A stretch of 32,000 nt of DNA from Candidatus Saccharimonadota bacterium (GTDB taxonomy: Bacteria; Bacillota_I; Bacilli_A; Mycoplasmatales; Hepatoplasmataceae), in NCBI GenBank assembly GCA_027925225.1, contig AP027131.1, positions 240,001 through 272,000 of the forward strand, written 5' to 3'. The position numbers were made by a program, and so were the translations under genes. Each line of letters starts with the position of its first letter. Position 1 is the first letter of the stretch. Below, piece after piece: positions 9,284-28,773 of the stretch. A model generated the notes under the pieces. That model did not search any database. It saw nothing but the letters and a program-made list of their open reading frames with translations, and was not told the DNA's origin.

Positions 9284-9673
9284 ATGATAAATAATAATGA
9301 AGAAAATCAAGCTTTAACAAATAATTTATTAGATGAAAATTTTGGAAATATAAATCTTAATAAAAAATTAATGCTTTCAACTGGAGATATAAAAAAAGAT
9401 TATGATATTTTAGGATTAGTTTTTGGCAATTCTGTTTCTTCAAAAAATGTTTTTAAAGATATGGGAGCACAACTTAAATCCATAGTAGGTGGTAAAATTG
9501 GTTCATATGAAAAATTACTTTTTGAATCAAGAGAGAAAGCAAAAAATCAAATGATAAAAAATGCAATTCTTCTTAAAGCAGATGGAATTATTTTTATAAA
9601 ACAATCAACTTCAGCAATAATGCAGCAAGCTTCAGAAGTAAGTTTTATGGGAACGGCAATAAAATTTAAATAA
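9284..9673 (+). CDS. YbjQ/UPF0145 family (putative heavy-metal-binding) protein, 129 aa
   Basis: Core reads YDILGLVFGNSVSSKNVFKDMGAQLKSIVGGKIGSYEKLLFESREKAKNQMIKNAILLKADGIIFIK...VSFMGTAIKF, typical of the YbjQ_1 domain. Confidence 0.75.
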   Translation: MINNNEENQALTNNLLDENFGNINLNKKLMLSTGDIKKDYDILGLVFGNSVSSKNVFKDMGAQLKSIVGGKIGSYEKLLFESREKAKNQMIKNAILLKADGIIFIKQSTSAIMQQASEVSFMGTAIKFK

Positions 9674-9698
9674 TTTTATTAAAACAAAAGGAATAATT

Positions 9699-11273
9699 AT
9701 GAAAGAAAAAATATCTTTATTAAAAATAAAACTTGGTTTATCTTTTTCTGAAAAAGAAAAAAATATTTATGTAAGTAAAGTAGATTTTGAAAATCTAATA
9801 GAAAATTTTAAGGATAAGGAGTGAATTAAAAATTATTTTAAAAATTATTTTTTTTATAAAAAAACTTTAAAATACTCTTTTCCAACAAGCTTTTTCTTTA
9901 TCTGAAAAGCAAATGGAAGAAAAACAAATAAAATTTACTTTAAATTTAGAAAAGATGAAATAAAAGAAAGAATTTATAGCGGTGAATTTAATTCTGAAAA
10001 AGAGGGAGATATTTTTGAAGAAAATTTTAAATTAATAAAAACTTATGTTGAATCTCTTTCAAAATTAGTTAATCATTTTTTTGATTTAGTTGATTTTTCA
10101 AAAGAAGAGTGTGATGTTAGATTAAACATTTTAGATACTTCTTTATCTTTAGAAAAATATGTAGAAAGTATTTTGAATTTTTATAAAGATATTAAGAAAA
10201 ATAAGCTTTTTCAAAAAATTTATGTTGTTAATACAAAAATTTTAAATAGCATAATAAAAAATTCTAAAATAGTTTCAAAAGATGAATCATTTATTATAGA
10301 TTCAAAAATTAATAATTCAAATTCAAATACAAATAAAATTGAAATTATTTCTTCTAAATTAAAAGATATAAGAAATATAAGAGATTTGTCCGAAGGGAAA
10401 CAAGTAATTAAAAATTATATTATTAAATCATCATTTATTGAAAATTATTGTTTTTCAAGCGAAAAATTTAATCCTAAAATTAATTTTGTAAAAGCTTCTA
10501 AATTAAAATCAGTGGAAAATTCAATAATAGAAGATTCTTATATTAGTTTTACAAAAATAGATACAGAAAAAACAGAAATATCAAAATCAAAATTAATAGG
10601 AAATAGAATTGATTTTAAAATAAAAAACAAAGTACAAATTATTAAAAATTATGAAATTAATTTTTCTTCTATAACAAATATAAGTTTTGTAGGAGATGAA
10701 AATAATGATGAAAAATATTTTGTTAGAAAATCAAAATTATTTTCATTAAATGAATCAATTTTTGAAAATACAAATGCTAAATATTCTTTAGTTGAAACAA
10801 ATAATTTATTTAATATAAAAAATTCAAATATTTTAAGAAGTAGAAGTAATTGAATTTTAAAAGATGAATCACAAATAATAAAAGATTATTTTATTATTAA
10901 TTCAAATGTTAAAAATGTTTCTTTTTCTTCTGATGAGTTTGAAAACATAAAAGAAATGTCTTCTTCGCTTGAAACAGCAAATAATTTAATTGATAAATCA
11001 CTTGGTAAAATTAGTCCTGATATTATAAATAAAAGTTTAAATTTAATTGGAGATGAAATTAAATCTACTGAAAATGTCTTAAAAAATTCTTCTATCAAAT
11101 CTTTTAATTTATCTAATATAGATAATTCTTATATAAAGAGAGTTAAATTTGAAGTAAATAAACTTAAAATATCTGGATCTAAATTAATAAATATTAAAGG
11201 TAATTGATATTCTCCTAACGGAGTTCAAAATATAATAAATTATTCATTAAGTAATTCTACAATTAAAACTTAA
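9699..11273 (+). CDS. Hypothetical cytoplasmic repeat-rich protein, 524 aa, with a degenerate short-period Ile/Ser/Asn repeat pattern (beta-solenoid-like)
   Basis: ATG 9699 follows aagga. Track ORFs 10173-10853 and 10956-11207 share its frame and are joined via TGA codons. It ends at TAA 11271-11273. No signal peptide or TM segment is visible. Confidence 0.65.
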
Positions 11274-11292
11274 AAGAATTTTATTTAAAAAT

Positions 11293-11586
11293 TTAGTTAT
11301 TTAAACTTTTTTGAAATAAATATGTTTCAATTTTTGAAAGAGTTATTTTAATTTCTATCATTTCTTTGTTATGAATCATTATGGTTTGATTTAAGATTTT
11401 AATATCTTGTTTAACTTCTTTTAAATTATTTTCAATATTATCTATTTTAATTTCAAAGAAATCTATTTTATTTTCGACGGAATTTAGTCTATTTTCAACA
11501 GAATTTAGTCTATTTTCAACAGAATTTAATCTATTATCAATGCTTATAAGTTTTGCGCTATTTCAAAAATGAAAGTTTATTTTCAT
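11293..11586 (-). CDS. Small coiled-coil protein, 97 aa, with three tandem RLNSVEN heptads (paralog of 4730-4981)
   Basis: ATG 11584-11586, one in-frame TGA, TAA 11293-11295. Product: MKINFHFWNSAKLISIDNRLNSVENRLNSVENRLNSVENKIDFFEIKIDNIENNLKEVKQDIKILNQ... Confidence 0.5.
11471..11540. repeat. 21-bp tandem repeat, three full units plus a partial fourth, inside the small coiled-coil CDS
   Basis: ttttcgacggaatttagtcta / ttttcaacagaatttagtcta / ttttcaacagaatttaatcta / ttatcaatgc... Confidence 0.9.
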
Positions 11587-13905: not shown

Positions 13906-15195
13906 CTATCAAATATTTTCTATGTTTATTGTTTGTTCTTTTTTAGGGCCTACCGAAAACTGAACTACAGGAACGCCGGTATAATTTTCAATTGCTTCTA
14001 AGTATTTTTTTGCATTTTTTGGTAAATCATAAAATGATTTTACTTTGCTAATATTTTCATTTCATCCAGGTAAAATAACATAATTTACTTTTACATCATT
14101 ATAAATTCTTTCAGAAGCCGGAATTGATTCTAAGATATGTTCTCCTATCGTATAATTTATTCCAATTTTTAATTCTTTAATTCCTGTAAGTACATCTAAA
14201 AGAGTAATAGAAATACCAGTAAGTCCACTTACTCTTTTTGCGTGTTTTATTAAGGTAACATCAAATCATCCAATTCTTCTTGCTCTTCCTGTTGTTGTTC
14301 CGTATTCTTTTCCAACTTCTCTTATTTTTTTTGATATTTCATTTTCAAATTCAGTTGGAAAAGCACCTTTACCAACTCTTGTAACATAAGCCTTTGTAAC
14401 TCCTATTGTTTGAGAAATAGAATATGAAGGTATACCTACATTAAGCGGAATAGAAGAAGAGGTTGGTGAAGAAGAAGTAACAAAAGGATAAGTTCCATGA
14501 TCTAAACAAAGAAGAATTCCTTGTGCACCTTCAAAAAGAACTTTTTTTCTTTTTTCTAAAGCTTTAAACACTAAAAGCGAAGAATCGACAACATAATGTT
14601 TTATTTTTTCTCTTGCTTCTAATGCAAATTTATAAGTTTCTTCAAAATCAATTTTTTTATCTATTTTCATTGCTTTAAAGATTCTATTTTTTTCTTCTAT
14701 GTTTTCTTGTAATTTTTCTTTTAGGTAATCATCATCATAAAGATCAATAATTCTTATTCCAATTCTTGCGACTTTATCTGTATAGGCTGGACCTATTCCT
14801 TGTTTTGTTGTTCCAATAGTAGATTTTCTGTTTTCTTCTTGCAAAGCATCTATTTCTTTGTGATAGGGGAAAACAATATGAGCTCTATCTGAAATAAATA
14901 GTGAAATGTCTACTATTCCTGCTTTTTTTAATCCTTCAATTTCATTTAATAAACCTTTAAGATCGATAACAACACCATTTGAAAGAACATTTTTAACATT
15001 TGTATTGAATATACCAGAAGGAAGGAGATGGAGCCCAAATCTCTCGTTATTATAGATTATAGAATGCCCAGCATTTCCTCCGCCTTGGTAACGAACAACA
15101 TAATCTGCTCTGCTTGCAAAATAATTTGTTATTTTGCCTTTTCCTTCATCGCCTCATTGTGTTCCCACAATAGCAATTGAATTATATTTTTTCAT
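13906..15195 (-). CDS. purA: Adenylosuccinate synthetase, 429 aa
   Basis: MKKYNSIAIVGTQWGDEGKGK, GGGNAGH and TTKQGIGPAY motifs. Track ORF 14266-14844 extends both ways through TGA. Stop TAG at 13906-13908. Confidence 0.95.
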
Positions 15196-15221: not shown

Positions 15222-16511
15222 TTAAAATACTCTTTTATAAATATTATCTACTTCTCTTAAATAATATTTATAATCAAAAAAATTATTTATTTCATCCTTA
15301 TTAAATAATTTATTTATTTCATTATTTTCAAGTATTAAATTTTTAAAATCTTTATTTTCTTTCATTGATTTAAGAGCTAAATTTTGTATTAAGTCATATG
15401 CTTTTTCTCTTGAATATTCTTTTTTTATTAAATTGCTTAATATTCTTTGAGAAAATACTAATCCTTTTGTAATTCATATATTTTCAAACATTTTTTTTTC
15501 ATTTACTATTAATGTTTTTAATGTATAAGAATATCTTTTTAATGCATATTGAATAAGTGTTGTTGCATCAGGAATTATTACTCTTTCTACTGAAGAATGA
15601 GAAATATCTCTTTCATTTCAAAGAGGAATATTTTCATAAGCAGAAAAAACATAACCTCTTAATATTCTAGAAATTCCTGTAATATTTTCTGAAGTTATTG
15701 GATTTTTTTTATGAGGCATTGAAGAAGAACCTTTTTGTCCGGTGCTAAAATATTCTTGTACTTCACCTATTTCGGTACGTTGAAGTGTTCTTATTTCAAT
15801 TGCAATTTTTTCTAATGAATTTCCTATCATAGCAATGCTATGAATATAATTTGCATAAACATCACGTTGGATTATCTGTGTTGATATTTTTGCTGAATTT
15901 ATTTTTAAATTTGAGCAAACCATATCTTGTATATTACTTTTAATGTTTGCAAAATTTCCCATTGAACCAGAGATTTTTCCTGTTTCTATTTCTTCTCTTG
16001 CATTTTTAAATCTTTTAATGTTTCTAGACATTTCGTCATATCAAAGTAATCATTTTAAACCAAAAGATGTAGGCTCTCCGTGAATTCCATGTGTTCTACC
16101 AATTATTGGTGTATTTTTGTATTTATTTGCATTTTCTTTTAAAACTTCTAAAAAAATTAATAATTCCTTTTCTATTTCATTATTTGCTTCTTTAATTAAT
16201 AAAGCATTTGCTGTATCTATTACATCACTTGCCGTTAATTTATAGTGAATTCATTTTTTTTCATCACCTAATTTTTTAGATATTGATCTAGTAAAAGCCA
16301 CTACATCATGTTTTGTTATTTTTTCTATTTCTTCTATTTCTTTTAAATTAATTTTTGCATTTTCTTTTAAAATTTCATAGTCCTTAATTGGAATTACTTT
16401 TATTTTCACAAAAGAATGAATAACTTCTAATTCAACATCTAAGAATTTTTGAAATTTATTTTCTTGAGATCATATTTTTTGCATAACCTCATTAGAATAT
16501 CTTTTTATCAT
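15222..16511 (-). CDS. purB: Adenylosuccinate lyase, 429 aa
   Basis: Fumarate-lyase signature [11 protein letters not shown]. Track ORF 15618-16031 extends through TGA to ATG 16509-16511 and TAA 15222-15224. Confidence 0.95.
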
Positions 16512-16547
16512 ATAGAAATATTATAAGTTATTTTAAATATTAATTTA

Positions 16548-18029
16548 TTATTCAATATCATTAACAATAACAATAAAACTTGAATTTTCATAATCGGGTC
16601 CTATTGGATAATAATATTTATATCCATTTTCTGAATCATAAGTTAAATCTCTAGGAAAAGAGAAATTAAAATCTCCAAAAATCATTTCTTGTGCATAATA
16701 TTCTTCACTATCATATATTCAATCATCTTCATCAGGAAGAACTAAATAATAGGTATAATTCAATGTTCGATTTGTAGTTGCTTTTATATCTGAATTTTGA
16801 TAATAAAGTCCTGGTGTATTGAGAAGTGTAGAATTAATTTCGGAAACTTCTTGTGATTGATAATTTATTTCTTTTTTATCTCATTCATTATGTCCCCCAT
16901 AAGGATCATCAACATTAACTAATATATTTCAATTAAATCCTATTTTTATATTTTTTGTAAACTCCATAAATGATTTAGTATTTTCAACATTTATTTTTTT
17001 CAAATTTATATTAAAAATTAAATAATTATCGCCATAAGCACTTTCTTTGGGATTTACATCAATGCTTTGAACATTTTTTTCATGTATTGATGGTGTAAAA
17101 TAATATGTTTTTTCATCAAATAAATATGAAAAACTAGTTGTTTTATAGTCATTATTTAAAAACATAATTACTGAATCATTTACATCTTTATATCCATAAT
17201 TAATTGGCATTTCAACTTCATTATCAGAAAATTTAAATTCTTGTGTGTATAAACCATCTCCTTTTGTGCTTGTTATTTTACTTGCGCTACTTATTGGAAT
17301 TAATTTATATTTTTCTTTAATTAAAAGTTTTTCATTGTTTGTATCATAAAGATCATAATACTCTGCATAATGATAAAGAGAATAAGAAGAATAATCATAA
17401 AAATTAAAACCATCTCCATCAGAATATGTAATTTCAATTTTATTATTTATTCCTTTTTTTGCATTTATAATTTTTGGATAACTTTGATCTCCATTATCAT
17501 AAATCGTTCGACTTGTTTTTATTTTATAATCTTGTTCATATGTTGTATTAATAATTGTATTATCAATATTGTTTATTGATAATGTTGGATTTAAAATATA
17601 ATAAATATTATCACTTTTTAAATATTCAGGATATATTGAATAATTATAATAAACAGGTAATTCAACATAAAAATAAGTTTCTAGATTTAAGTTTTTAATT
17701 TTAAATAAATTTTTATTTATATAAAAAGAAACATCATGATAACTATCATCATTTTCAGATTTAATTTGATAACTAAATGTTATTGAATTAATTTGAGAGA
17801 TATCTCCATTATAAATTCCTGTTGTAATTAAAATTGTCATATCATCTTCAGCATATTCTCTACCCATATAATCTAATGTTTCATGATTAAAATATGAAGA
17901 AATAATTTGAAAATTTTCATCTTCACTAATATTTTTATTTTTAAAAGAATTATTTATAAAAGGTAATCCTATTATCAAAAATATTGGTAAAAAGATAAAA
18001 GATAGTATTTTTTTATTTATTTTTTGCAT
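16548..18029 (-). CDS. Cassette gene A, copy 1: signal-anchored Asn/Tyr-rich secreted or surface protein, 493 aa, no recognised family
   Basis: Track ORF 16929-18029 continues through TGA codons (16929, 16881, 16719) to TAA 16548-16550. I checked every codon from 16548 to 16929. Hydrophobic N-terminus MQKINKKILSFIFLPIFLIIGLPF, with no lipobox Cys. Confidence 0.75.
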
Positions 18030-18103
18030 AGCTATTTCCTTTTTTATTATTTCTTAAATTAAAGACAACATCATTATAAAATACTTTTTTTATACTTAAT
18101 ATA

Positions 18104-20148
18104 TTTAATTAAAAAAAACACAAATGTAGATATATAAAATAGTGAAATAATTAAAGATAAAATTACTATTAATTTTTTATTTTTTGTTTTTATCGATATA
18201 TTCTCATAATTATTTGGATAAATATAATCATTAAAATATGAATAAGATCAATCATATTTATAATCATTATTTAATTCATTTATTGCATAAATATTAAAAT
18301 TACTATATTTAGTATTATTTTCTAAATTTGTTAAAGTATATTCATATTGATTTTCATAAATTATAGAATTACTAATTAAATTTTCTTCTTTTAAACTATC
18401 ATATTCATTATTATTTGAGTCTTTATAAGTAATTCTTAAGTTATTGGCTTGAATTTTTGAAACATCAGAATATGTAATTTCAAATGTAATTGAATTATTT
18501 TTTATTTTCTTAATTTTTATGTTTTCTATATTTACATTTGAAAAATCAGTTACATAATTTTTTTTATTTAAAAAATATTTTTCATTATATTTAAAATTTA
18601 ATTTACTTAATGAAAAATTCATATTTATATATATATTATTTTCCTCAAAAGTTGGTATTTCATAAATTGCTTCTATATTATTTTTATAATTTATAAAATT
18701 TATTTTAGAATAATATAATTTTTTTGAATATTTTTTAATTTTATTATTTTGATTGTCATATAATGAATAATTAAAATTAATTTCCTTTATTAAATTTAAA
18801 TTCCCATTTTTAGTATTATTTCAAATTTTATTAGAATGATAAAAAACATCTAAATAATATTTGTTTCCTTTTTTTGTAATTTTTGAATCAATTACATCAA
18901 TATTTAATTTATTAAAATTTTTTTCAAAATTTATTTCTTTAAAAAAATACTTATAACCAGTGGTACTTAAATAATTTTTATTATCTTTATAATTTTTAAC
19001 AAAAGAATTGTTTAAATAATCATATTCAAAATATCCACTATTTATAAAAACGAAAGATGATAAGTCATTTGTATTATTTTTTTCAAAATTTATTTCATAT
19101 TTATAAATATCCAAATTTTCCATATAAATTGGATTTGTTAAAACTTTATATTCTTCTTTTCCATTATTTTTATAAGACAAAACTAAATTATTAGCTAATT
19201 GATAATTTATTTCATCATTATATTTTATAAAGATGTAAAAAGAATTATCATAATATTCATTTTCTTCATAATAAACATTTTCAATTTGAGGGGGGTGGAT
19301 TGGGGTAATTATTTTGTAATTATCAACTCACTCATTTAAAAATATTTCTTCATTATTATAAAAAAAAGAAAAATTATAATAAATCATTCCTTCTTCCTTT
19401 GAAATATTATTTATATAAATTGTTTCATTATATCAATTACTATTTCCGTATTTGTAATAGTTATCATTATATTCAAAATTTAATTGGTAATTATTTTCAT
19501 TTTTATCATTATTATAGGATCTGTAATCTGCATATATTTTTAAATTATTTAAAAATTCTTTAATTGTTATTTTTTTAGGAATTAAAACATTTAAGTTAAT
19601 TTCAGCTATATTATTATTTAAAAAAATAAAATCATTTATTATAATTTTTACATTATTTAAATTAAAGTTTTCTTCATAATTTAGACTAAAACTATTAATA
19701 CATTTTTGTATTGGTTTTAATAAATAAGTTGAAAAATATCCATTTTCATAGTAAATATTTACTTCAAATGAAAAATCAGGATTTAATTTATATAAATTTT
19801 CTAAATTATTTATTTTAATATTATTTATATTTAGTTTAATAATAAAAAAATGATTATGAAGGTATTTGTTTACATAATCATTTTTTGTTACATTGTTAAT
19901 TAATAATATTTTATTTTTGCCATTTGAATAATTAATATTATTTAATTTTTCTATTATATGTATTGAATCATTATCCGATATAAGAGAATATTCAATATTT
20001 ATATTTCAACTTTCAATATTTAAAATAGAATTAATTGTATTTTATTTCTATTTTGGTTATTAACAGCATAACCCACAAAAGAAATACTTGAAAGCGTAAT
20101 CAAAAATATTAAAGAAATAAAAAGAAAAGGAGTAAAAAATTTTCTCAT
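18104..20148 (-). pseudogene. Cassette gene B, copy 1: disrupted paralog of 22753-25104
   Basis: A 42-codon leader ORF (20020-20148, MRKFFTPFLFISLIFLITLSSISFVGYAVNNQNRNKIQLILF*) is in a different frame from the 645-codon body (18104-20041). The body has no upstream ATG. About 85 codons present in copy 2 are missing. The C-terminus is truncated after an A9 run (18110-18118). Confidence 0.7.
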
Positions 20149-20264
20149 TGTTACTTAACACCACCCAAATTTGTATATTTTTTTGTTATTGTTTTATATT
20201 TAATTAAATCTCTAAGTACATTATTTATAGCAAAATTATTTTATTAAAATATTAAAAATTTAAA

Positions 20265-20924
20265 TTAATCAATAAGTAATGATATTTCTTCTTTTCATCT
20301 TTTAAAGTCATCTTTTCCATAAGGCGTTTCTAATGCTTTTGGTAAGTTTATTAATTTTGGGTGAAATACAATTTTCTTTAAAGCTTCAAGTCCTATCTCT
20401 CCTTTTCCAATATTTGCATGTCTATCTTTGTTAGATCCTAATTCATTTTTTGAGTCATTTATATGCATTCCTTTTAAATAATGGAGTCCTATTATTTTGT
20501 CAAATTCATTTAAAACTTCATCAATATTTCTAATATCATATCCTCCATCTCAAATATGACAAGTATCCATTACTACGCCAATTCTTTTTTTGTTTTCCGC
20601 TAAATCTATTATTTCTCTTATTTCATTGAAATTTTTTCCAATATAATTTTCTTTTTTCATCATTGTTTCAATACAAAGTATTACATTACTATTTTTTGTT
20701 TTTTCAATTATTTCATTTGTCCCAAAAGCGCATCTTTTAATTCCCTCTTCTCTTTTTCTAAAAGAAACTGGGTGAAAATTAAAATATTTAAGTCCCATTT
20801 TTTCCATTAATTTCACATCTTCTGTATAAGAATAAACAGTAGCATTAAAAATTTTTAAGTCTTCATCATTATTTGCTTTTTTAATTAATAAAGCATTTGC
20901 TGTATCTATTACATCACTTGCCAT
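20265..20924 (-). pseudogene. Chimeric purB(codons ~93-110)::nfo(codons ~82-284) open reading frame; 5'-truncated endonuclease IV copy
   Basis: Product [33 protein letters not shown]...[12 protein letters not shown]...LLID*. The first 15-17 residues match purB ([20 protein letters not shown]) and the rest matches nfo. It lacks the N-terminal third of Nfo, including the VHAP His. Confidence 0.8.
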
Positions 20925-21188
20925 TAATTTATAATGAATTCATTTTTTTCATCACCTAATTTTTTTGATATTAATCTAGTAAAGGCTACTACATCATGTT
21001 TTGTTATTTTTTCTATTTCTTTTAAATTAATTTTCGCATTTTTTTTAAAATTTCATAGTCCTCAATTAGAATTACTTTTAATTTAACAAAAGAATTAATA
21101 ACTTCTAATTCAACATCTAAGAATTTTTGAAATTTATTTTCTTGAGATCATATTTTTTGCATAACCAAATTAGAATATCTTTTATCAT
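20877..21188 (-). pseudogene. purB 5' fragment (codons 1 to ~110), decayed
   Basis: Aligns to 16188-16511 with 1-nt homopolymer indels (one just after the start codon) and a 9-nt deletion of one ctatttctt repeat unit. The reading frame is broken. Confidence 0.85.
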
Positions 21189-21230
21189 ATAAAAATATTA
21201 TAAGTTACTTTAATATTAATTTAATTATGG

Positions 21231-22700
21231 TTAATTTATTATTGGTATTATTAGATTATCATTTTCATAGTCTGGAGAAAATAAATAATAATATTCATAT
21301 CCAGATTTTGAATCATAATTTAGCATTGATGGAAAAAATAAGCAAAAATCACTAAAAATCATTTTATTTGCATATGTTTGTTCATCTTTATATATTCAAT
21401 AATTTTCATCAGGAAGAACTAAATAATATGTGTAATGTAACATATTATCACTTGTATTTATTATGTCTGAGTTTTGATAATAAAGTCCTGGCATATTGAG
21501 AAGAGAAGAATTTATTTCAGATACTTCTTGTGCTTCGTAAGTTACACTTTTGCTATCTCATTCATTATGTATGCCATAAGAATCTTCTACATTTAATAAA
21601 ATATTTCAATTAAATCCTATTTTAATATGCTTTGTAAATTCTTTATATGATGAATTATTATTTGCATCAATTCTATTTAAATAAATATCAAGTTTAAAAT
21701 AATTAGGATTACCAATTTTTTTATTACTATTTAATGTTATATTTGAAATATTTTTTTCATAAACAATAGGAGGATGAAACACAGTATTAGAAGATGAATT
21801 AACTAATGCATAACTAATTGATTGATAATTTTCATTTAAAATCAAGAATAAAGAATTGTTAACAGATTTGTAACTGTAATTTAAAGGCGGATCAATTTCA
21901 TTTTCAGATAATTTAAATTCTTGTACATATAAACCATCAAATAATTTATCTTCTATTTTTTTTGCTTTGCTTATTGGAGTTAATTTAGTAAAATTTTTTA
22001 ATAATAAATTTTCATTATTTGTATCATAAAGATCATAAAATTCTTCATAATGATAAATTGAAAAAGATGAATAATCAAAAAAATTAAAATTATCTCCGTC
22101 AGAAAAAAGGACTAACATTTTTCCTGCATTTTCTACTTGAACACCTTCAATCTTTGGATAACTTTGATCTCCATTATCATAAACTGTTTCACCTGGTATT
22201 ATTTCATAATCTTGTTCATAGGTTGTACTAACAATTGTTCCATCAATATTATTTATTAATAATGTTGGATTTAAAATATAGTAATATGTTCCACTTTCTA
22301 AATAATTAAAATATGTTGAATAATTATAATAAATGGGCAATTCAACATAAAAAAAAATATTTGAAGACATGGATTTAATTTTAAAGGAATTTTTATCTAC
22401 ATTAAAAGAGACATTATGATATTCGGTATCATTTTCAGACTTAATTTGATAATCAAAAGTTATTGAATTAATTTGAGAAACATCTCCACTATATATACCT
22501 TTTGTTATTAATGAAGTCATAAATATATCTGAATCTACTTTGCCATCGTAAAGCAGTTCATCAATATTAAAATAAGAAGATATAATTTTAAAATCATTAT
22601 TTTCATTAATATTATTTTTCTTAAAATTAATATTTTTAAAAGGTAAATTAATTATTATTAAAAATAATGGCAAAAAAAGAATTATGATTTTTTTTTTCAT
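21231..22700 (-). CDS. Cassette gene A, copy 2: signal-anchored Asn/Tyr-rich secreted or surface protein, 489 aa
   Basis: Track ORF 21606-22700 continues through TGA to TAA 21231-21233. N-terminus MKKKIIILFLPLFLIIINLPF. Conserved blocks shared with A1 include DNGDQSYPKI, YDLYDTNNE, KIGFNWNIL, HNEWD, PGLYYQNSDI and YTYYLVLPDE. Confidence 0.75.
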
Positions 22701-22752
22701 TTTTTTTATATTTATTTCCTTTTTTATATTTATTATTTAAAATTCAAAATTA

Positions 22753-25104
22753 TTATAAAATACTTTTTCTGTATTTAATATACTTAATTAAAAAATATAT
22801 AAATGTAAATATATATATAAGTAAAATTGATAAAGATAAAACAATTATTAACATTTTATTTTTTGTTTTTATTGAAACATTTTTATAATCTTGTGGATAG
22901 ATAGAATTATAAAAATATGAAAAATTTCAATCATATTTATAATCACTGCTTAATTCATCTGATATATAAATATTAAAATCTTCATATCTAGTATTATTTT
23001 TTAAATTAATTAAAGTATATTCATATTGATTTTCATAAATTTTTGAATTACTTATTAAATTTTTTTCTATTAAAGTGTTATATTCATTGTTATTTGAATC
23101 TTTATATGTAATTTTTAAATTATTAGCTTGAATTTTTGAAATATCAGAATATGTTATTTCAAATGTAATAGAATCATTTTTTATTTTTTCAATTTTTATA
23201 TTATTTATATTCGAACTATAAAAACTAGTTAAATATATTTTTTTAGATAAAAAGTATATTTCATCATATTTTTCATTTGATTTATTTAATGAAAAATTCA
23301 TATTTACATATATATTATTTTCTTGAAAAGTTGGTATTTCATAAAGAACTTCTATATTATTTTTATAATTTATAAAATTTATTTCAGAATAATATAATAT
23401 TTCTGAATATTTTTTAAATTTATTATTTTCATTATTGTATAAAGAATAATTAAAATTAATTTTTTTAATTAAATTTAAATTTCCATTTTTTGTATTATTT
23501 CAAATTTTATTAGAGTGATAAAAAGAATCTAAATAATATTTATTTCCTTTTTTTATAATTTTTGAATCAACAACATAAATGTTTAATTTATTTGATGAAA
23601 CTTCTTTTAATTGCAAGGTTTTAAAAATATATTTATAACCAGTAGTGTTTACATAATTATTATTATCATAATTTTTAGTAAAAGAATTATTTAAAAAATC
23701 ATATTCAAAATATCCGCTATTTATAAAAACAAAAGAAGATAGCTCGCCAATCTCATCAAATGTTATTTCATATTTATAAATATCAAAACTTTTTATATAA
23801 AATGGATTTTTTAAAAAAATATATTCACTTTTATCATTATCTTTATAGTATAAAACAAGATCATTTGCTAATTGATAGTTTATATTTTTATCATATTTTA
23901 TATATATATAAAAAGAATTTGCATAATATTCATTTTCCTTATAATAAATACTTTTTATATTTGGAGGATATATGGGTGTTATTATTTTATAGTTATCAAC
24001 TCACTCATTTATAAAAATTTCATTAGAATTATAAAAAAAGGAAAAATTATAATAAATTATTCCTTCTTCTTTTGAAAAATTATTTATATAAATAGTTGCA
24101 TTATATCAATTGCTATTTCCATATTTATAATAATCATTATTGTATTTAAAATTTAATTTATAATTATTAACATTTTTATTATTATCATAAGATTTGTAAT
24201 CTGCATAAATTTTTAAATTACTTAAAAATTCTTCAATTTTTATTTTTTTAGGAAGCAAAATATTTAAATTAATTTCAATAATATTATTATTCTGAAAAAA
24301 AAAATTATTTATTATAATTTTTGGATTATTTAAATAAAAATTATTTTCATAGCTTAGATTAAAACTATTAATACTTTTTTCAAAAGATAAAAAATAAAAA
24401 GAAATATTTTTTTCTATATTTGTTTGAATGGAAATATTTAAAAAACTATCTTCATCTAAATAATAATGTTGTGAAATTTTATTGGCCTTAATATTGTTTA
24501 ATTTGTATTTAAATATAAAAAAATGATTATTAATATAAGAATTTAAATAATTGTTATTTGTATTAATATCAATTTTTATAATTTCAATATTTTTTATTTT
24601 ATTTATATTTTCTGGGGTAATAATTCTATGTATTTTAATTTTATTTTTATTATTTTCTTTAGAAATTAAACAATAATTAATATTAATTAAAAAATCAATA
24701 ATTCCTTCTTTTTTTATTAAGTTTAAATCTTGATTTAAATAAACAAACATATAAGATGTTAGTGAATATATATCTTCAAATTTTTCATTAGATTCATAAG
24801 AAGCATAGTAATTTCAAAGAACTAAATCTGGGTTATCATTTAATCATTTTTTAATTTGAGAATAATTCATATTCTCAACACCCTTATTTATTATATTTTC
24901 TTTATTTTCTTTAATTTTTTCTATCTGAATTTTATGGTTAAATATAAAGGCATTTTTTACCTGTTCTCCCATATCAATATTTTGTTCTGTATCAACATTA
25001 TTTCTATTTTGATTATTAACAACATAACCTATAAAAGGAATACTTGAAAATGTAATAAAAAATATTAAAGAAATAAAAAGAAAAGGAGTAAAAAATTTTC
25101 TCAT
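22753..25104 (-). CDS. Cassette gene B, copy 2 (intact): 783-aa surface protein with an N-terminal signal/anchor helix and a C-terminal TM anchor; the membrane-proximal domain looks FN3/Ig-like
   Basis: Track ORFs 24844-25104, 24106-24750 and 22927-23301 are one frame. I checked every codon in 23302-24105, 24751-24843 and 22753-22926 and found only TGA. N-terminus MRKFFTPFLFISLIFFITFSSIPFIGY. C-terminus MLIIVLSLSILLYYIFTFIYFLIKYIKYRKSIL*. Confidence 0.75.
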
Positions 25105-25222
25105 TGTTACTTAACACCACCCAAATTTGTATATTTTTTTTGTTATTGTTTTATATTTAATTAAATCTCTAAGTACATTATTTATAGCAAAATTATTTTA
25201 TTAAAATATTAAAAAATTTAAA

Positions 25223-26077
25223 TTAATCAATAAGTAGTGATATTTCTTCTTTTCATCTTTTAAAGTCATCTTTTCCATAAGGTGTTTCTAATGCTTTTGG
25301 TAAGTTTATTAATTTTGGATGAAATACAATTTTCTTTAAAGCTTCAAGTCCTATCTCTCCTTTTCCAATATTTGCATGTCTATCTTTGTTAGATCCTAAT
25401 TCATTTTTTGAGTCATTTATATGCATTCCTTTTAAATAATGGAGTCCTATTATTTTGTCAAATTCATTTAAAACTTCATCAATATTTCTAATATCATATC
25501 CTCCATCTCAAATATGACAAGTATCCATTACTACGCCAATTCTTTTTTTATTTTCCACTAAATCTATTATTTCTCTTATTTCATTGAAATTTTTTCCAAT
25601 ATAATTTCCTTTTTTCATCATTGTTTCAATACAAAGTATTACATTACTATTTTTTGTTTTTTCAATTATTTTATTTATCCCAAAAGCACATCTTTTAATT
25701 CCTTCTTCTCTTTTTCTAAAAGAGCCTGGATGAAAATTAAAATATTTAAGACCCATTTTTTCCATTAATTTCACATCTTCTGTATAAGAATAAACAGTAG
25801 CATTAAAAATTTTTAAGTCTTCATCATTATTTGCCAAATTTCCAATTAAAGGTGCATGAACAATAATATTTTTAATATTAAAATTTATTTTTTTTGCAAA
25901 TTCCTTTGCTTCTTTTAGATTATCTTCATCTAAAATTAATGTTTTTTTATAAGCTCTTGAATTTGAAATATACATCGCACCAGATGTTGCTTCTATTTCA
26001 TTTAAGTCATGTAAAGTACCTAATAATTGTGTTTTTTGTTTAAAGGATACATGAGCACCAATTAAAGGTTTTTTCAT
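25223..26077 (-). CDS. nfo: Endonuclease IV (AP endonuclease), 284 aa
   Basis: [41 protein letters not shown] and [26 protein letters not shown] motifs. Joined through TGA at 25508. TAA at 25223-25225. Confidence 0.9.
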
Positions 26078-26085
26078 TTTTATTC

Positions 26086-28773
26086 CTATTCTTCTTTTTC
26101 TTTATAATTTTGTTCTTTTATTATTTCAATGTAATAAGGGGTTTCTTTTATTACATTAGAGCATCTTTCACAAATATCATCAATCATTTCTTCTTGTGAA
26201 TAATATTTTCAACATCTTTCACAACGTATTCCATTATATTTTTTTATAGAAATTTCTAAAGTATCTTTTTCATTAGTGAAAAAAAGATTTATTTTTCCCA
26301 CTAGTAAAAGATCTTTTAAATTTTCATTTGCTAAAATTTGATATTTCTCTCCAAGTGTAATATTTACTTCTGCTTCAAAAGATCTATTTAATATTTTTTT
26401 TACTCTTAGTTCTTCTATTTTTTTATTTAATTCTTCTCTTATTTTATTAAATATTTCTCAATTATTATTTTCTTTAAAATCAAATAATTCTTTTTTTGCT
26501 AAAAATATACTTTCGTTATTTTCTTTTAAATGATAGTTTTCATAAGCATCTTCTATTGTGACAGGCAATATTGGAGAAAGCGCATAAATTAGTATTTTAA
26601 AAGCATAATTTAAAATTGTTTGTGCTTCTCTTCTAAGAGAAGAATTTTTTCTTTCGATATATATTACATCTTTTACATATTCAAAATAATAAGCAAGTGA
26701 TTCAGAAGTAACTTCATTTACAATTCTTTTTAAAATATTTGAAAATTTATAATTTTTATAATTTTCTTCTATTTCATTTTGTAGTTTAATTAAATTACTT
26801 AACATCATTTTTCCTAAAAAACTATATTCTTCTTTATAAACTTTTTTTAAATCACTAATATTCCCTAAAATATATTTCAATGAATTTCTAATTTTTTTAT
26901 ATGCTTTTATATTATTTTCAACTATTTCTTTTGAAAATTTTAAATTTGAAAAATAATCAGAATTAGCAACTCAAAATCTTAAAATATCAGAACCATATCT
27001 TTCAATAAATTCAATTGGATTTATTACATTTCCTAATGATTTAGACATTTTATTTCCATTTTCATCTACAGTAAAACCATGTGTAATTACTTTTTTATAA
27101 GGAGCTTTATTTTCTAAAATAGTTTTTGTTATTAAAGAAGAATTAAATCAACCACGATATTGATCGTTTCCTTCTAAATAAATGTCTGCCATTTTTCCTT
27201 TTAATACACTTAAATGACTTGACCCAGAATCAAATCAAACATCTAGAATATCTGTTTCTTTTTTAAATTTTTCATTAAATTTAATTTCTTTAGGTAATAA
27301 ATCTTTTATATTAGCATCTCTTCAACCAATAATTCCTTTTTCGTTAAAAAGATTTTCAATATTTTCTTGTAATTTTTTGTTTACAATTGGTTTGCTTTTT
27401 TCGTCATAAATTATTGGAATTGGCACCCCTCAAATTCTTTGTCTTGAAATACATCAATCATCACGATTTATTACCATTTCTTTTATTTTATTTTTTCCTC
27501 AAGAAGGTATTCATGTTACTTTTTCAATATTATTTAATAAATCATTTTTTATTTTTTCTATTGAAACAAATCATTGTTTTGTTGCTCTATAAATAATTGG
27601 TAGTTTTGTTCTTCAATCAATCGGGATAGAGTGAGTAATTTCTTCTGAAAATAATAGTGCGCCTTTTTTTGTTAAATCATTAAGAATTATATTGTTTGCT
27701 TTTTTATAAAAAATTCCATCGTATTCTTTTGAGTTAATCATATTTCCATCATCATCTGTTACAACAAAAAGTCTTAAATTATTTTCCTTTGTAACAAGAT
27801 AATCATCCATTCCATGGCCGCCTGCAGTATGAACAATTCCTGTTCCGCTTTCAGTTGTTACATGATCTCCATATATTAATCTACTTAAATCTTTATTTAA
27901 TGGATTAATTGCATCTTTTCCAATATTTTTTTCTAAATTAAAATCTTCCAATATTTTTATTTTTTTATTTATCTTTTTTTCTAATTTTAAAATTAATTCT
28001 TCTGCAATTACATATTTTTTATTTTCAATTTCTGTAATTTTATATTTTATATTTTTATTAAATGCCAATGCAACATTTCCAGGTAATGTTCAAGGTGTAG
28101 TTGTTCAAATTAGAATATTTAAAGAATTATTAAATTTAAACGCAACATAACAAGAATCATCTTTTGATTTTTTATATTCAATTTCCGCTTCTGCTAAAGC
28201 AGTTTTTGAAGAATAAGATCAATATATTGGTTTTAAACTTTGATAAATTAATTTATCGTTTAGCATTTTATGGAAAATTTTTATTTCATTTGCAATGTAA
28301 TCATTTTTTAAGGTAAGATATTTATTTTCAAAATCAAATAAAAGATTTAATTTTTTAAATTGCTTTTCTTGTCTCTCAACTTGCTTTAGTGCATAGCTAT
28401 AACATTTTTTTAAATATATTTCCTTTTCGGTATTTTTTAAATTAATTCCACTTTTTTGAATTTCAGTTTCAATTGGTAATCCAAAAGTATCTCAACCAGG
28501 AATTGCATTTAATTTTGAACCATTTAATATCTCTCTTCTTATTATTATGTCTTTTAAAATTTTGTTTAATGCATGCCCCAAATGAATATCTCCATTTGCA
28601 TAAGGCGGACCGTCATGTAGAATAAACTCATAACCATCCCTATTTTTTAATTTATTAATTAAATCTATTTCAATATTTTTTTTAAAAAAATATTGATCTT
28701 TTTTAAAAAGATCACCTTTCATTTCAAAATTAGTTTTTGGCATTAACAAAGTCTTTTTATAATTTATTTTCAT
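26086..28773 (-). CDS. ileS: Isoleucine--tRNA ligase, 895 aa
   Basis: HIGH-type motif [25 protein letters not shown] (W encoded by TGA), KMSKS ([10 protein letters not shown]) and a C-terminal Cys-rich zinc-finger tail. All track fragments (28492-28773, 27613-28068, 26458-26880) are in one frame. Stop TAG at 26086-26088, 8 nt before the nfo start. Confidence 0.95.

Follow-up and report, generated by a model that had tools for sequence, protein, structure and literature searches.

In enterobacteria, the tufA/tufB genes undergo partial concerted evolution by RecA-type gene conversion. The locus described here is a tandem duplication between nfo and purB, which carries two copies (numbered 1 and 2) of a pair of orphan genes named B and A; a third copy of the pair (3) lies elsewhere in the genome. 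The window, a stretch of 32,000 nucleotides (contig AP027131.1, positions 240,001 to 272,000), was placed by protein searches in the metagenome-assembled genome (MAG) of Candidatus Hepatoplasma vulgare Av-JP and is read with genetic code 4. Like tufA/tufB, the locus contains blocks of near-identity with sharp borders beside diverged sequence, the age of the blocks varies and the repeats are a few kilobases apart (B1 and B3 are distant). In tufA/tufB, however, the coding regions are homogenised, whereas here truncated or dead fragments of housekeeping genes and a promoter are alike and the functional genes stay apart.

Several surface-protein families of mollicutes recombine among dispersed copies: MgPa/MgPar in Mycoplasma genitalium, RepMP in Mycoplasma pneumoniae and vlhA in Mycoplasma synoviae. 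The A and B genes resemble them: they belong to a mollicute, are lineage-restricted, evolve fast, encode predicted membrane-anchored proteins and occur at more than one locus, and segments appear to move between the copies. Those families consist of an expression site and silent partial cassettes, while A and B are present as three full-length gene copies. In addition, A and B lack a lipobox cysteine and showed no homology to these families in family searches.

Tandem segmental duplications formed by microhomology-mediated illegitimate recombination, with a chimeric gene at the junction, are normally short-lived and internally identical. The present locus has the same build: head-to-tail units, one novel junction, an 11-nt microhomology and an in-frame purB'-'nfo fusion open reading frame (ORF). 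Its cores, on the contrary, stand at a synonymous divergence (dS) of ~0.55. In the orphan modules of Rhs and contact-dependent inhibition (CDI) systems, displaced variable cassettes are found behind repeated conserved segments. Here also, every highly variable cassette stands behind a repeated conserved segment, which could guide recombination. However, these conserved segments are accidental fragments of housekeeping genes, and neither toxin/immunity features nor homology in family searches was found. Partial gene conversion around a tandem duplication formed by microhomology, with mosaic divergence as its result, is a familiar and fairly ordinary course of evolution in bacterial gene families; new here are the gene family and the purB'-'nfo chimera, as instances.

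Structure and divergence of the duplicated region

A segment reaching from nfo codon 82 to purB codon 109 has been duplicated head to tail. The window has a G+C content of ~20%, and re-reading under genetic code 4 (TGA = Trp) turned ORFs that are broken under table 11 into long genes, in the minus-strand order nfo–B2–A2–purB'::'nfo–B1–A1–purB. The two units are colinear and arranged head to tail (16177-20876 aligned with 20866-25834). There is a single new junction, where purB codon 109 is fused in frame to nfo codon 82 at GCAAATAATGA. Exactly three copies of this motif are present in the window: one in purB (16177-16187), one in nfo (25824-25834) and one at the junction itself. The duplication, closed at this microhomology, thus resulted in two copies of the orphan B-A gene pair. 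At the junction edges, 72 nt on the nfo side are identical to the parent, and ~58 nt on the purB side contain two differences. Inside the window, no extra A or B remnants, no remnants of the slot genes of a sister species and no older inter-cassette spacer were identified.

The chimeric ORF created by the junction (HPAVJP_2410, a hypothetical protein) is open over 219 codons, composed of 16 purB codons and Nfo residues 82-284. Its start results from an ACG-to-ATG change in purB', 16 codons upstream of the join. The match to the endonuclease IV profile (AP_endonuc_2) covers only positions 70-246 of 249, as Nfo residues 1-81 are missing. The possibility that HPAVJP_2410 is a complete endonuclease IV was rejected: the triosephosphate isomerase (TIM) barrel is incomplete. 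The 'nfo part contains no indels in ~601-609 nt, against four events in the 312 nt of the adjoining purB'. purB' is clearly dead: besides a 9-nt deletion, it has lost single nucleotides at three sites, one in codon 2-3; its substitutions are distributed 5:4:6 over the codon positions, with a GC>AT bias of 9:3. An earlier note on this DNA had taken both fragments to be non-functional. This is correct for purB', but 'nfo is part of an open ORF of 219 codons and is not obviously dead.

Divergence is not uniform along the units. In sliding windows over their global alignment, identity is 92-100% in both flanks and 52-93% inside. The observation of close flanks and distant cassette genes, made by eye in the earlier note, is confirmed, and its estimates were near the counts. 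For the nfo flank (20149-20876 versus 25105-25834), ~15 substitutions and two homopolymer changes had been given; 14 substitutions and two single-base indels were counted. The substitutions fall in the 'nfo fragment (14 in 601 nt, 0 indels) and the two homopolymer indels in the nfo-B intergenic region (0 substitutions in 116 nt). The start of gene B, described as identical over ~45 nt, is so over 47 nt, with the first mismatch at 20101. The purB fragment, said to differ by a few percent plus indels, has 15 substitutions in 312 nt (4.8%) and four indel events. The cassette proteins, put at roughly two-thirds identity, are 57% (A1/A2) and 68% (B1/B2) identical.

The change from flank to cassette is abrupt. 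B codons 1-18 contain 2 substitutions in 54 nt and codons 19-36 contain 7 in 54 nt; a stretch with a 278-nt length difference between the units follows downstream of codon 36. The alignable B body differs at 354 of 1818 nt (19.5%), and A at 425 of 1482 nt (28.7%). Penalised-likelihood segmentation gave 1.8% for 20106-20865, 27% and 57% for 19706-20105 (including the 278-nt length difference), 16.6% for the B body, 28.8% for A and 4.8% for 16188-16530. The cassette borders are sharp: identity rises from 65% to 95% over a few bases at the A stop codon, and the other switch is located inside the B leader. Over all sites, the difference between flank and cassette is highly significant (Fisher p = 3e-68). 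The discordance, which the note had called an order of magnitude, amounts to ~4-16 fold in nucleotides and ~7 fold in dS. As had been argued there, a single in situ duplication followed by clock-like drift is insufficient, the fragments being 4-16 times less diverged than the genes between them.

The synonymous sites show the same contrast. Calculated according to Nei-Gojobori under code 4, dS, non-synonymous divergence (dN) and dN/dS are 0.58, 0.315 and 0.54 for A1/A2, 0.54, 0.205 and 0.38 for B1/B2, and 0.084, 0.010 and 0.12 for the 'nfo fragment versus nfo, although dS is near saturation in this AT-rich genome and is probably an underestimate. A model-free count gave codon changes at 23.6% (A) and 17.6% (B) of the conserved residues, against 4.2% in the nfo flank. 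For the cassette as a whole, such silent changes amount to 142 of 713 positions, compared with 8 of 192 in the flank (p = 1e-8), and silent-site divergence is ~7-fold higher in the cassette. Judging from these ratios, purifying selection has acted on both tandem copies through most of their history; pN/pS reaches ~1 in only a few 40-codon windows. Within B, the synonymous differences are heterogeneous (p = 0.002).

A recent in situ duplication, after which the cassette alone came under intense diversifying selection or local hypermutation, is therefore extremely improbable. Such a scenario could draw on the very fast evolution of A and B between species (27-29% protein identity, compared with 62-76% for housekeeping proteins) and on the windows with pN/pS of ~1. 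However, a nfo-flank dS ~7-fold below that of the cassette, together with a dN/dS of 0.38-0.54, rejects diversifying selection, one of the three explanations listed in the earlier note, as a sufficient cause. Base-specific hypermutation, as by a diversity-generating retroelement (DGR), was ruled out, all substitution classes being present. Moreover, B1 groups with the distant B3 and not with its tandem neighbour.

A third cassette and the relatives of Hepatoplasma vulgare

The third B-A pair changes the picture given by the window alone. It consists of HPAVJP_1550 (B3, 777 aa) and the adjoining HPAVJP_1560 (A3, 493 aa), both compared at the protein level only. A1, A2 and A3 are equidistant, with 57-58% identity, 59/57/60 informative sites and equal numbers of unique changes. 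Even so, the informative sites are clustered (max-chi-square p ~0.01): A1 and A3 go together in the N-terminal quarter, A2 and A3 in the middle, and A1 and A2 in the C-terminal quarter. A quartet analysis including the sister-species homologue Ax gave 8/8/4, hence no resolved tree.

In B, the signal is stronger. The centre of B1 is 95-100% identical to B3 over ~215 residues, compared to 53-93% with its tandem neighbour B2, and of the informative sites between alignment columns 350 and 600, 53 unite B1 with B3 and 2 speak against it. The B1 leader groups with B2, while the N-terminal domain of B1 differs from both B2 and B3. Over much of B, the tandem neighbours thus do not seem to be each other's closest relatives, and the near-identical tract shared by B1 and B3 suggests a recent inter-locus gene conversion. 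Homologous exchange between paralogues would then be active in this 662-kb genome.

B1 has a B2-type leader, a 1-nt frameshift in the A4 run at 20040-20043, ~98 codons missing after the leader and an open body of 655 codons; with one A added, an ORF of 691 aa is restored. The ~98 missing codons are present in B2, B3 and the sister-species homologue. The lesion (19900-20040) begins exactly at the end of the high-identity flank, and the remaining 655 codons are open at 14.5% G+C. A deletion at this very position would fit a recent nfo-to-purB re-duplication of an older B2-A2-B1-A1 array without fragments between its cassettes, after which a deletion on either side of the new junction took away one cassette. 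A young junction would in this way be reconciled with old cores, without foreign DNA. This history is nevertheless very unlikely: three separate events are needed, two of them deletions between sequences 65-80% identical that ended precisely at the cassette borders, and the window holds no remnant of an older inter-cassette spacer.

An nfo search of Logan assemblies yielded two informative uncultured relatives. The closer of them, ERR14127475 (contig L085), has an nfo with 88% nucleotide identity and a housekeeping dS of 0.37-0.58. Its nfo is followed by a homologous intergenic region and a B leader, where the 53-kb contig ends. The contig stops 146 nt into the B homologue (10975-11121), just beyond the point where the H. 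vulgare units begin to differ. An end inside B suggests that B is multi-copy in this organism too. The partial B protein (49 aa) is not close to B1, B2 or B3. The dS of A1/A2 and of B1/B2 equals the distance to this lineage, which already has B beside nfo.

Polarised against this contig, a close outgroup, the 14 differences of the nfo flank comprise 10 that arose in the fragment, 3 that arose in the intact gene and 1 that is ambiguous. Polarisation with the more distant contigs L081-L083 is unreliable at synonymous sites because of AT saturation and was redone with L085. The fragment-derived changes affect all three codon positions (~5:4:1 for third:second:first), and the three changes in the intact gene are all synonymous. 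This 10:3 polarity fits a decay of the fragment after a reset and lends no support to two long-separated functional alleles. A synonymous excess in the nfo flank was also considered as a sign of a foreign functional allele and rejected: it reaches p = 0.011 only under a pure one-lineage neutral model and is not significant (p = 0.21) once changes in the intact gene are allowed for.

The nfo flank is two-tiered: 8 of 16 substitutions lie in the 152 nt nearest the junction (~5%), compared to ~1% over the other 619 nt (Fisher p = 0.006). Similarly, 8 of the 14 'nfo substitutions are found within 20714-20793 and they are sparse elsewhere. Almost all changes on the 'nfo lineage are A:T-to-G:C transitions (8-9 of 10-11), five of them within 60 nt. 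This excess is odd at 20% G+C, the opposite of the GC-to-AT bias of purB', and could stem from a mutation shower, from a patch copied off an unseen template or from an artefact of polishing.

The nfo-B intergenic regions of the two units are identical at 116 of 116 aligned bases but only 77% identical to that of L085; hence, the identity between the units reflects recent history and not a constraint on the promoter. The copies differ solely in an A7/A8 run (20185/25141) and one T run (20259/25216). The former is located just 5' of the TATACAAAT element and of the G-rich TTGGGTGGTGTT, likely the ribosome-binding site, which is also conserved in L085. These run lengths could represent a true expression difference or a homopolymer error of Oxford Nanopore Technologies (ONT) sequencing. 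Taken together, the flank tiers, the heterogeneity of B and the decay of the fragments point to repeated patching of the locus, at various times.

Among 1.8 billion proteins searched with a profile, a single relative of A was found outside H. vulgare, in the organism of SRR24015491 (contigs L081/L084). This is a more distant relative, with an Nfo of 76% amino acid identity and a housekeeping dS of 0.68-1.1. Its B-A pair lies between def and rsmD (L084, 7642-11485) and encodes proteins of 789 aa and 494 aa, from ORFs that overlap by 11 nt. The 789-aa B aligns end to end with B2 at 29% identity, and the pair is 27-29% identical to the H. vulgare copies, against the 62-76% of housekeeping proteins between the same species. 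B and A thus form an old module of two genes, whose evolution far outpaces that of housekeeping proteins, and the def-rsmD position is probably its ancestral location. In the same organism, the order ileS-nfo-purB-purA-obg-deoC is retained, with two unrelated small ORFs (235 and 118 aa) between nfo and purB (L081, 4260-5310). The slot between nfo and purB is variable: the order in H. scabrum and in a related contig (L082, L083 7381-10864) is purB-purA-nfo, followed by a SIR2-domain gene. A purB scan of genome contigs gave, among the matches listed, only distant relatives with at most 56% identity and hence no Hepatoplasma context.

Proposed gene conversion and its alternatives

The reading preferred here, with confidence about evenly poised, is that old paralogues have been shuffled by patchy gene conversion, while the flanks were homogenised against their intact parents. 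The three cassettes would be old paralogues with a synonymous divergence of ~0.55, made into mosaics by occasional patchy conversion among the three copies. For 'nfo, purB' and the B promoter with its leader, only the intact parent, at a distance of 4.7-5 kb, would be available as a partner; with a single partner, any conversion or unequal exchange in a flank can only homogenise. Conversions harming the intact nfo or purB would be purged by selection. The cores are presumably too diverged for frequent recombination, and exchange there may draw on the third copy, re-diversifying the tandem neighbours. If the flanks are reset by conversion, their divergence (0-5%) dates the last homogenisation, not the duplication.

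The signs of gene conversion that count for this reading are the B1-B3 tract, the mosaic A, the heterogeneous synonymous divergence in B and the tiers of the nfo flank. Blocks of very different divergence with sharp borders are present along the unit alignment, and, at the protein level, the phylogeny of the three copies is incongruent along both A and B. Among the explanations that the earlier note had left standing, flank-homogenising gene conversion is the best supported.

Several points weigh against it. Conversion requires homology on both sides, so an old junction might show eroded edges, whereas the observed edges are near-pristine. About 1 kb of non-functional DNA must long have persisted in a streamlined genome. 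With four indels and 4.8% divergence in purB', conversion has to be infrequent there. The L085 contig crosses nfo codon 82 without a repeat-type assembly break, a hint that this lineage lacks a near-identical 'nfo copy. Recent conversion is not visible in A, and the contribution of A3 and B3 is limited to the protein level. The uneroded edges, the persisting junk DNA and the unbroken L085 contig fit a young junction and, hence, the capture of an allele.

In the latter case, the junction would have formed ~2-5% of neutral divergence ago, and one cassette would have been imported, its source being a long-diverged allele of this slot from another strain or lineage. Two different chromosomes could have recombined, either illegitimately or by one-sided homologous exchange; alternatively, one copy could have undergone allelic replacement after a recent duplication. 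Such an import is possible, if unlikely. It agrees with the pristine junction edges and sharp cassette ends, with the variability of the nfo-purB slot among relatives, with a cassette dS that equals the distance to an existing sister lineage carrying B in this slot, with the absence of indels and the dN/dS of 0.12 in the nfo flank, and with the fact that several Hepatoplasma lineages share one host (PMC10928387).

However, no donor was found in the databases searched, nor a second H. vulgare strain in the protein or contig collections. The flank changes fall 10:3 on the fragment lineage, as for in-place decay and unlike two functional alleles, so that the capture of a foreign or other-strain allele proposed in the earlier note gains no support from them; the synonymous excess of the nfo flank, at p = 0.21, adds none. 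A donor at a dS of 0.5 would bring diverged flanks, which are not seen; otherwise, a very old balanced polymorphism in a bottlenecked symbiont would be needed. Since A3 is as distant from A1 and A2 as these are from each other, old intragenomic paralogues suffice, and the 49 residues of the L085 B are close to no copy in the window.

The quality of the assembly also has to be considered. The source MAG was obtained from ONT reads, assembled with Flye and polished with Medaka and POLCA, and homopolymer differences, the B1 frameshift included, may be errors of such a MAG. The sampled host also harboured H. crinochetorum, and chimeric rRNA/tRNA regions of the assembly had to be patched by the authors (genome paper). 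A2, A3 and the chimeric ORF had no exact match on record in other assemblies, and the structure is thus without independent confirmation; metagenomes scanned for the A profile and for the junction sequence yielded no match either. An artefact, either two slot haplotypes joined in tandem or distorted flank identities, would account for the differences in homopolymer length and for the odd A:T>G:C excess in 'nfo, but it is highly improbable. The join is precise and in frame at an 11-nt microhomology, and purB' has its own 9-nt deletion and substitutions absent from purB. Furthermore, the proteomes of H. crinochetorum and H. scabrum contain no A or B homologues, which makes a cross-species chimera impossible.

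The B and A family in its genomic setting

B-A is a new, fast-evolving two-gene family, confined to a few Hepatoplasma lineages. B is ~780 aa long with hydrophobic segments at both ends, and A is ~490 aa long with an N-terminal one. In B2, the N-terminal hydrophobic segment and a C-terminal transmembrane helix are predicted, in a full-length architecture common to B3 and the sister-species homologue Bx. In A2, the remainder behind the N-terminal segment is a beta-rich orphan sequence. Both are predicted to be membrane-anchored; the earlier note had called them surface proteins, a label whose basis is the hydrophobic end segments. The N-terminal 35 residues of every A and B copy are free of cysteine, and a lipobox is thus absent.

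Neither A nor B has a credible match in Pfam, NCBIfam, PHROG, PADLOC or PDB profile searches, and comparison of their profiles shows that the two proteins are unrelated. The AlphaFold2 models, with a mean predicted local distance difference test (pLDDT) score of 45 for A and 35 for B, are too poor for a fold search. No switching recombinase was detected by Pfam in nine window proteins (A1, A2, B2 and six others). The B genes have a G+C content of 14.5%, well under that of their neighbours (20-30%), compared to 20.8% for A. A promoter/terminator scan gave a number of sites no higher than in shuffled sequence of equal AT content. The genome paper describes giant repetitive ORFs and RCC1-like proteins, while this locus and family are absent from its text.

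Table 1. Gene map of the duplicated region and its neighbours (positions in the window).
Feature	Positions	Strand	Remarks
ileS	26086-28773	-	Gene map; transcribed ahead of nfo
nfo, intact, endonuclease IV, 284 aa, parent of 'nfo	25223-26077	-	Code-4 ORF; 100% match to H. vulgare deoxyribonuclease IV; PF01261
nfo-B intergenic region, unit 2	25105-25222	-	Carries the conserved G-rich TTGGGTGGTGTT 5' of the B start
B2, 783 aa, HPAVJP_2440	22753-25104	-	Code-4 ORF
A2, 489 aa, HPAVJP_2430	21231-22700	-	Code-4 ORF
A-purB intergenic copy and purB' (purB codons 1-109)	20877-21230	-	purB' itself 20877-21188; decayed
Duplication junction, 11-nt microhomology GCAAATAATGA	20866-20876	-	Unit alignments, motif count
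'nfo fragment (nfo codons 82-284)	20265-20865	-	Part of chimeric, nfo-like ORF 20265-20924 (HPAVJP_2410)
nfo-B intergenic region, unit 1	20149-20264	-	Alignment to the unit 2 copy
B1, HPAVJP_2400	18074-20148	-	Annotated as 437 aa only; alignments
B1 tract near-identical to B3	18700-19440	-	Approximate coordinates, mapped from the protein alignment
A1, 493 aa, HPAVJP_2390	16548-18029	-	Code-4 ORF
purB, intact, 429 aa, parent of purB'	15222-16511	-	Code-4 ORF; orthologues in contigs L081-L083
purA	13906-15195	-	Gene map

Elsewhere in the window, a block between deoC and a 967-aa membrane protein (9284-11586) is absent at that position in the sister contig L081. Encoded in it are a 129-aa protein with a YbjQ_1 domain, an orphan of 524 aa and, on the opposite strand, a 97-aa coiled-coil ORF with three copies of NRLNSVE (a 21/42-nt tandem repeat at 11426-11540). 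A 391-aa protein with a GmrSD restriction endonuclease N-terminal domain (E = 2.5e-17), encoded at 818-1993 on the plus strand, is a candidate defence gene.

The locus is a clean teaching case in that the divergence of tandem copies would date the last homogenisation and not the duplication, and the synonymous-site test separates selection from recombination. H. vulgare Av-JP is an uncultured, host-restricted mollicute from the gut of the pill bug Armadillidium vulgare, and the interaction genes of Hepatoplasma are almost unknown. In a rather doubtful, speculative extension, the three B-A pairs would serve this gut symbiont as a system of cassette exchange for exposed membrane proteins. Segments would be copied between dispersed and tandem copies, and the two direct repeats derived from housekeeping genes (~760 nt at 98% and ~330 nt at 95%) would permit collapse to either cassette, restoring intact nfo and purB. 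If true, a host-associated population could vary the versions that it displays, by a mechanism not yet described in Hepatoplasmataceae and built from a new protein family.

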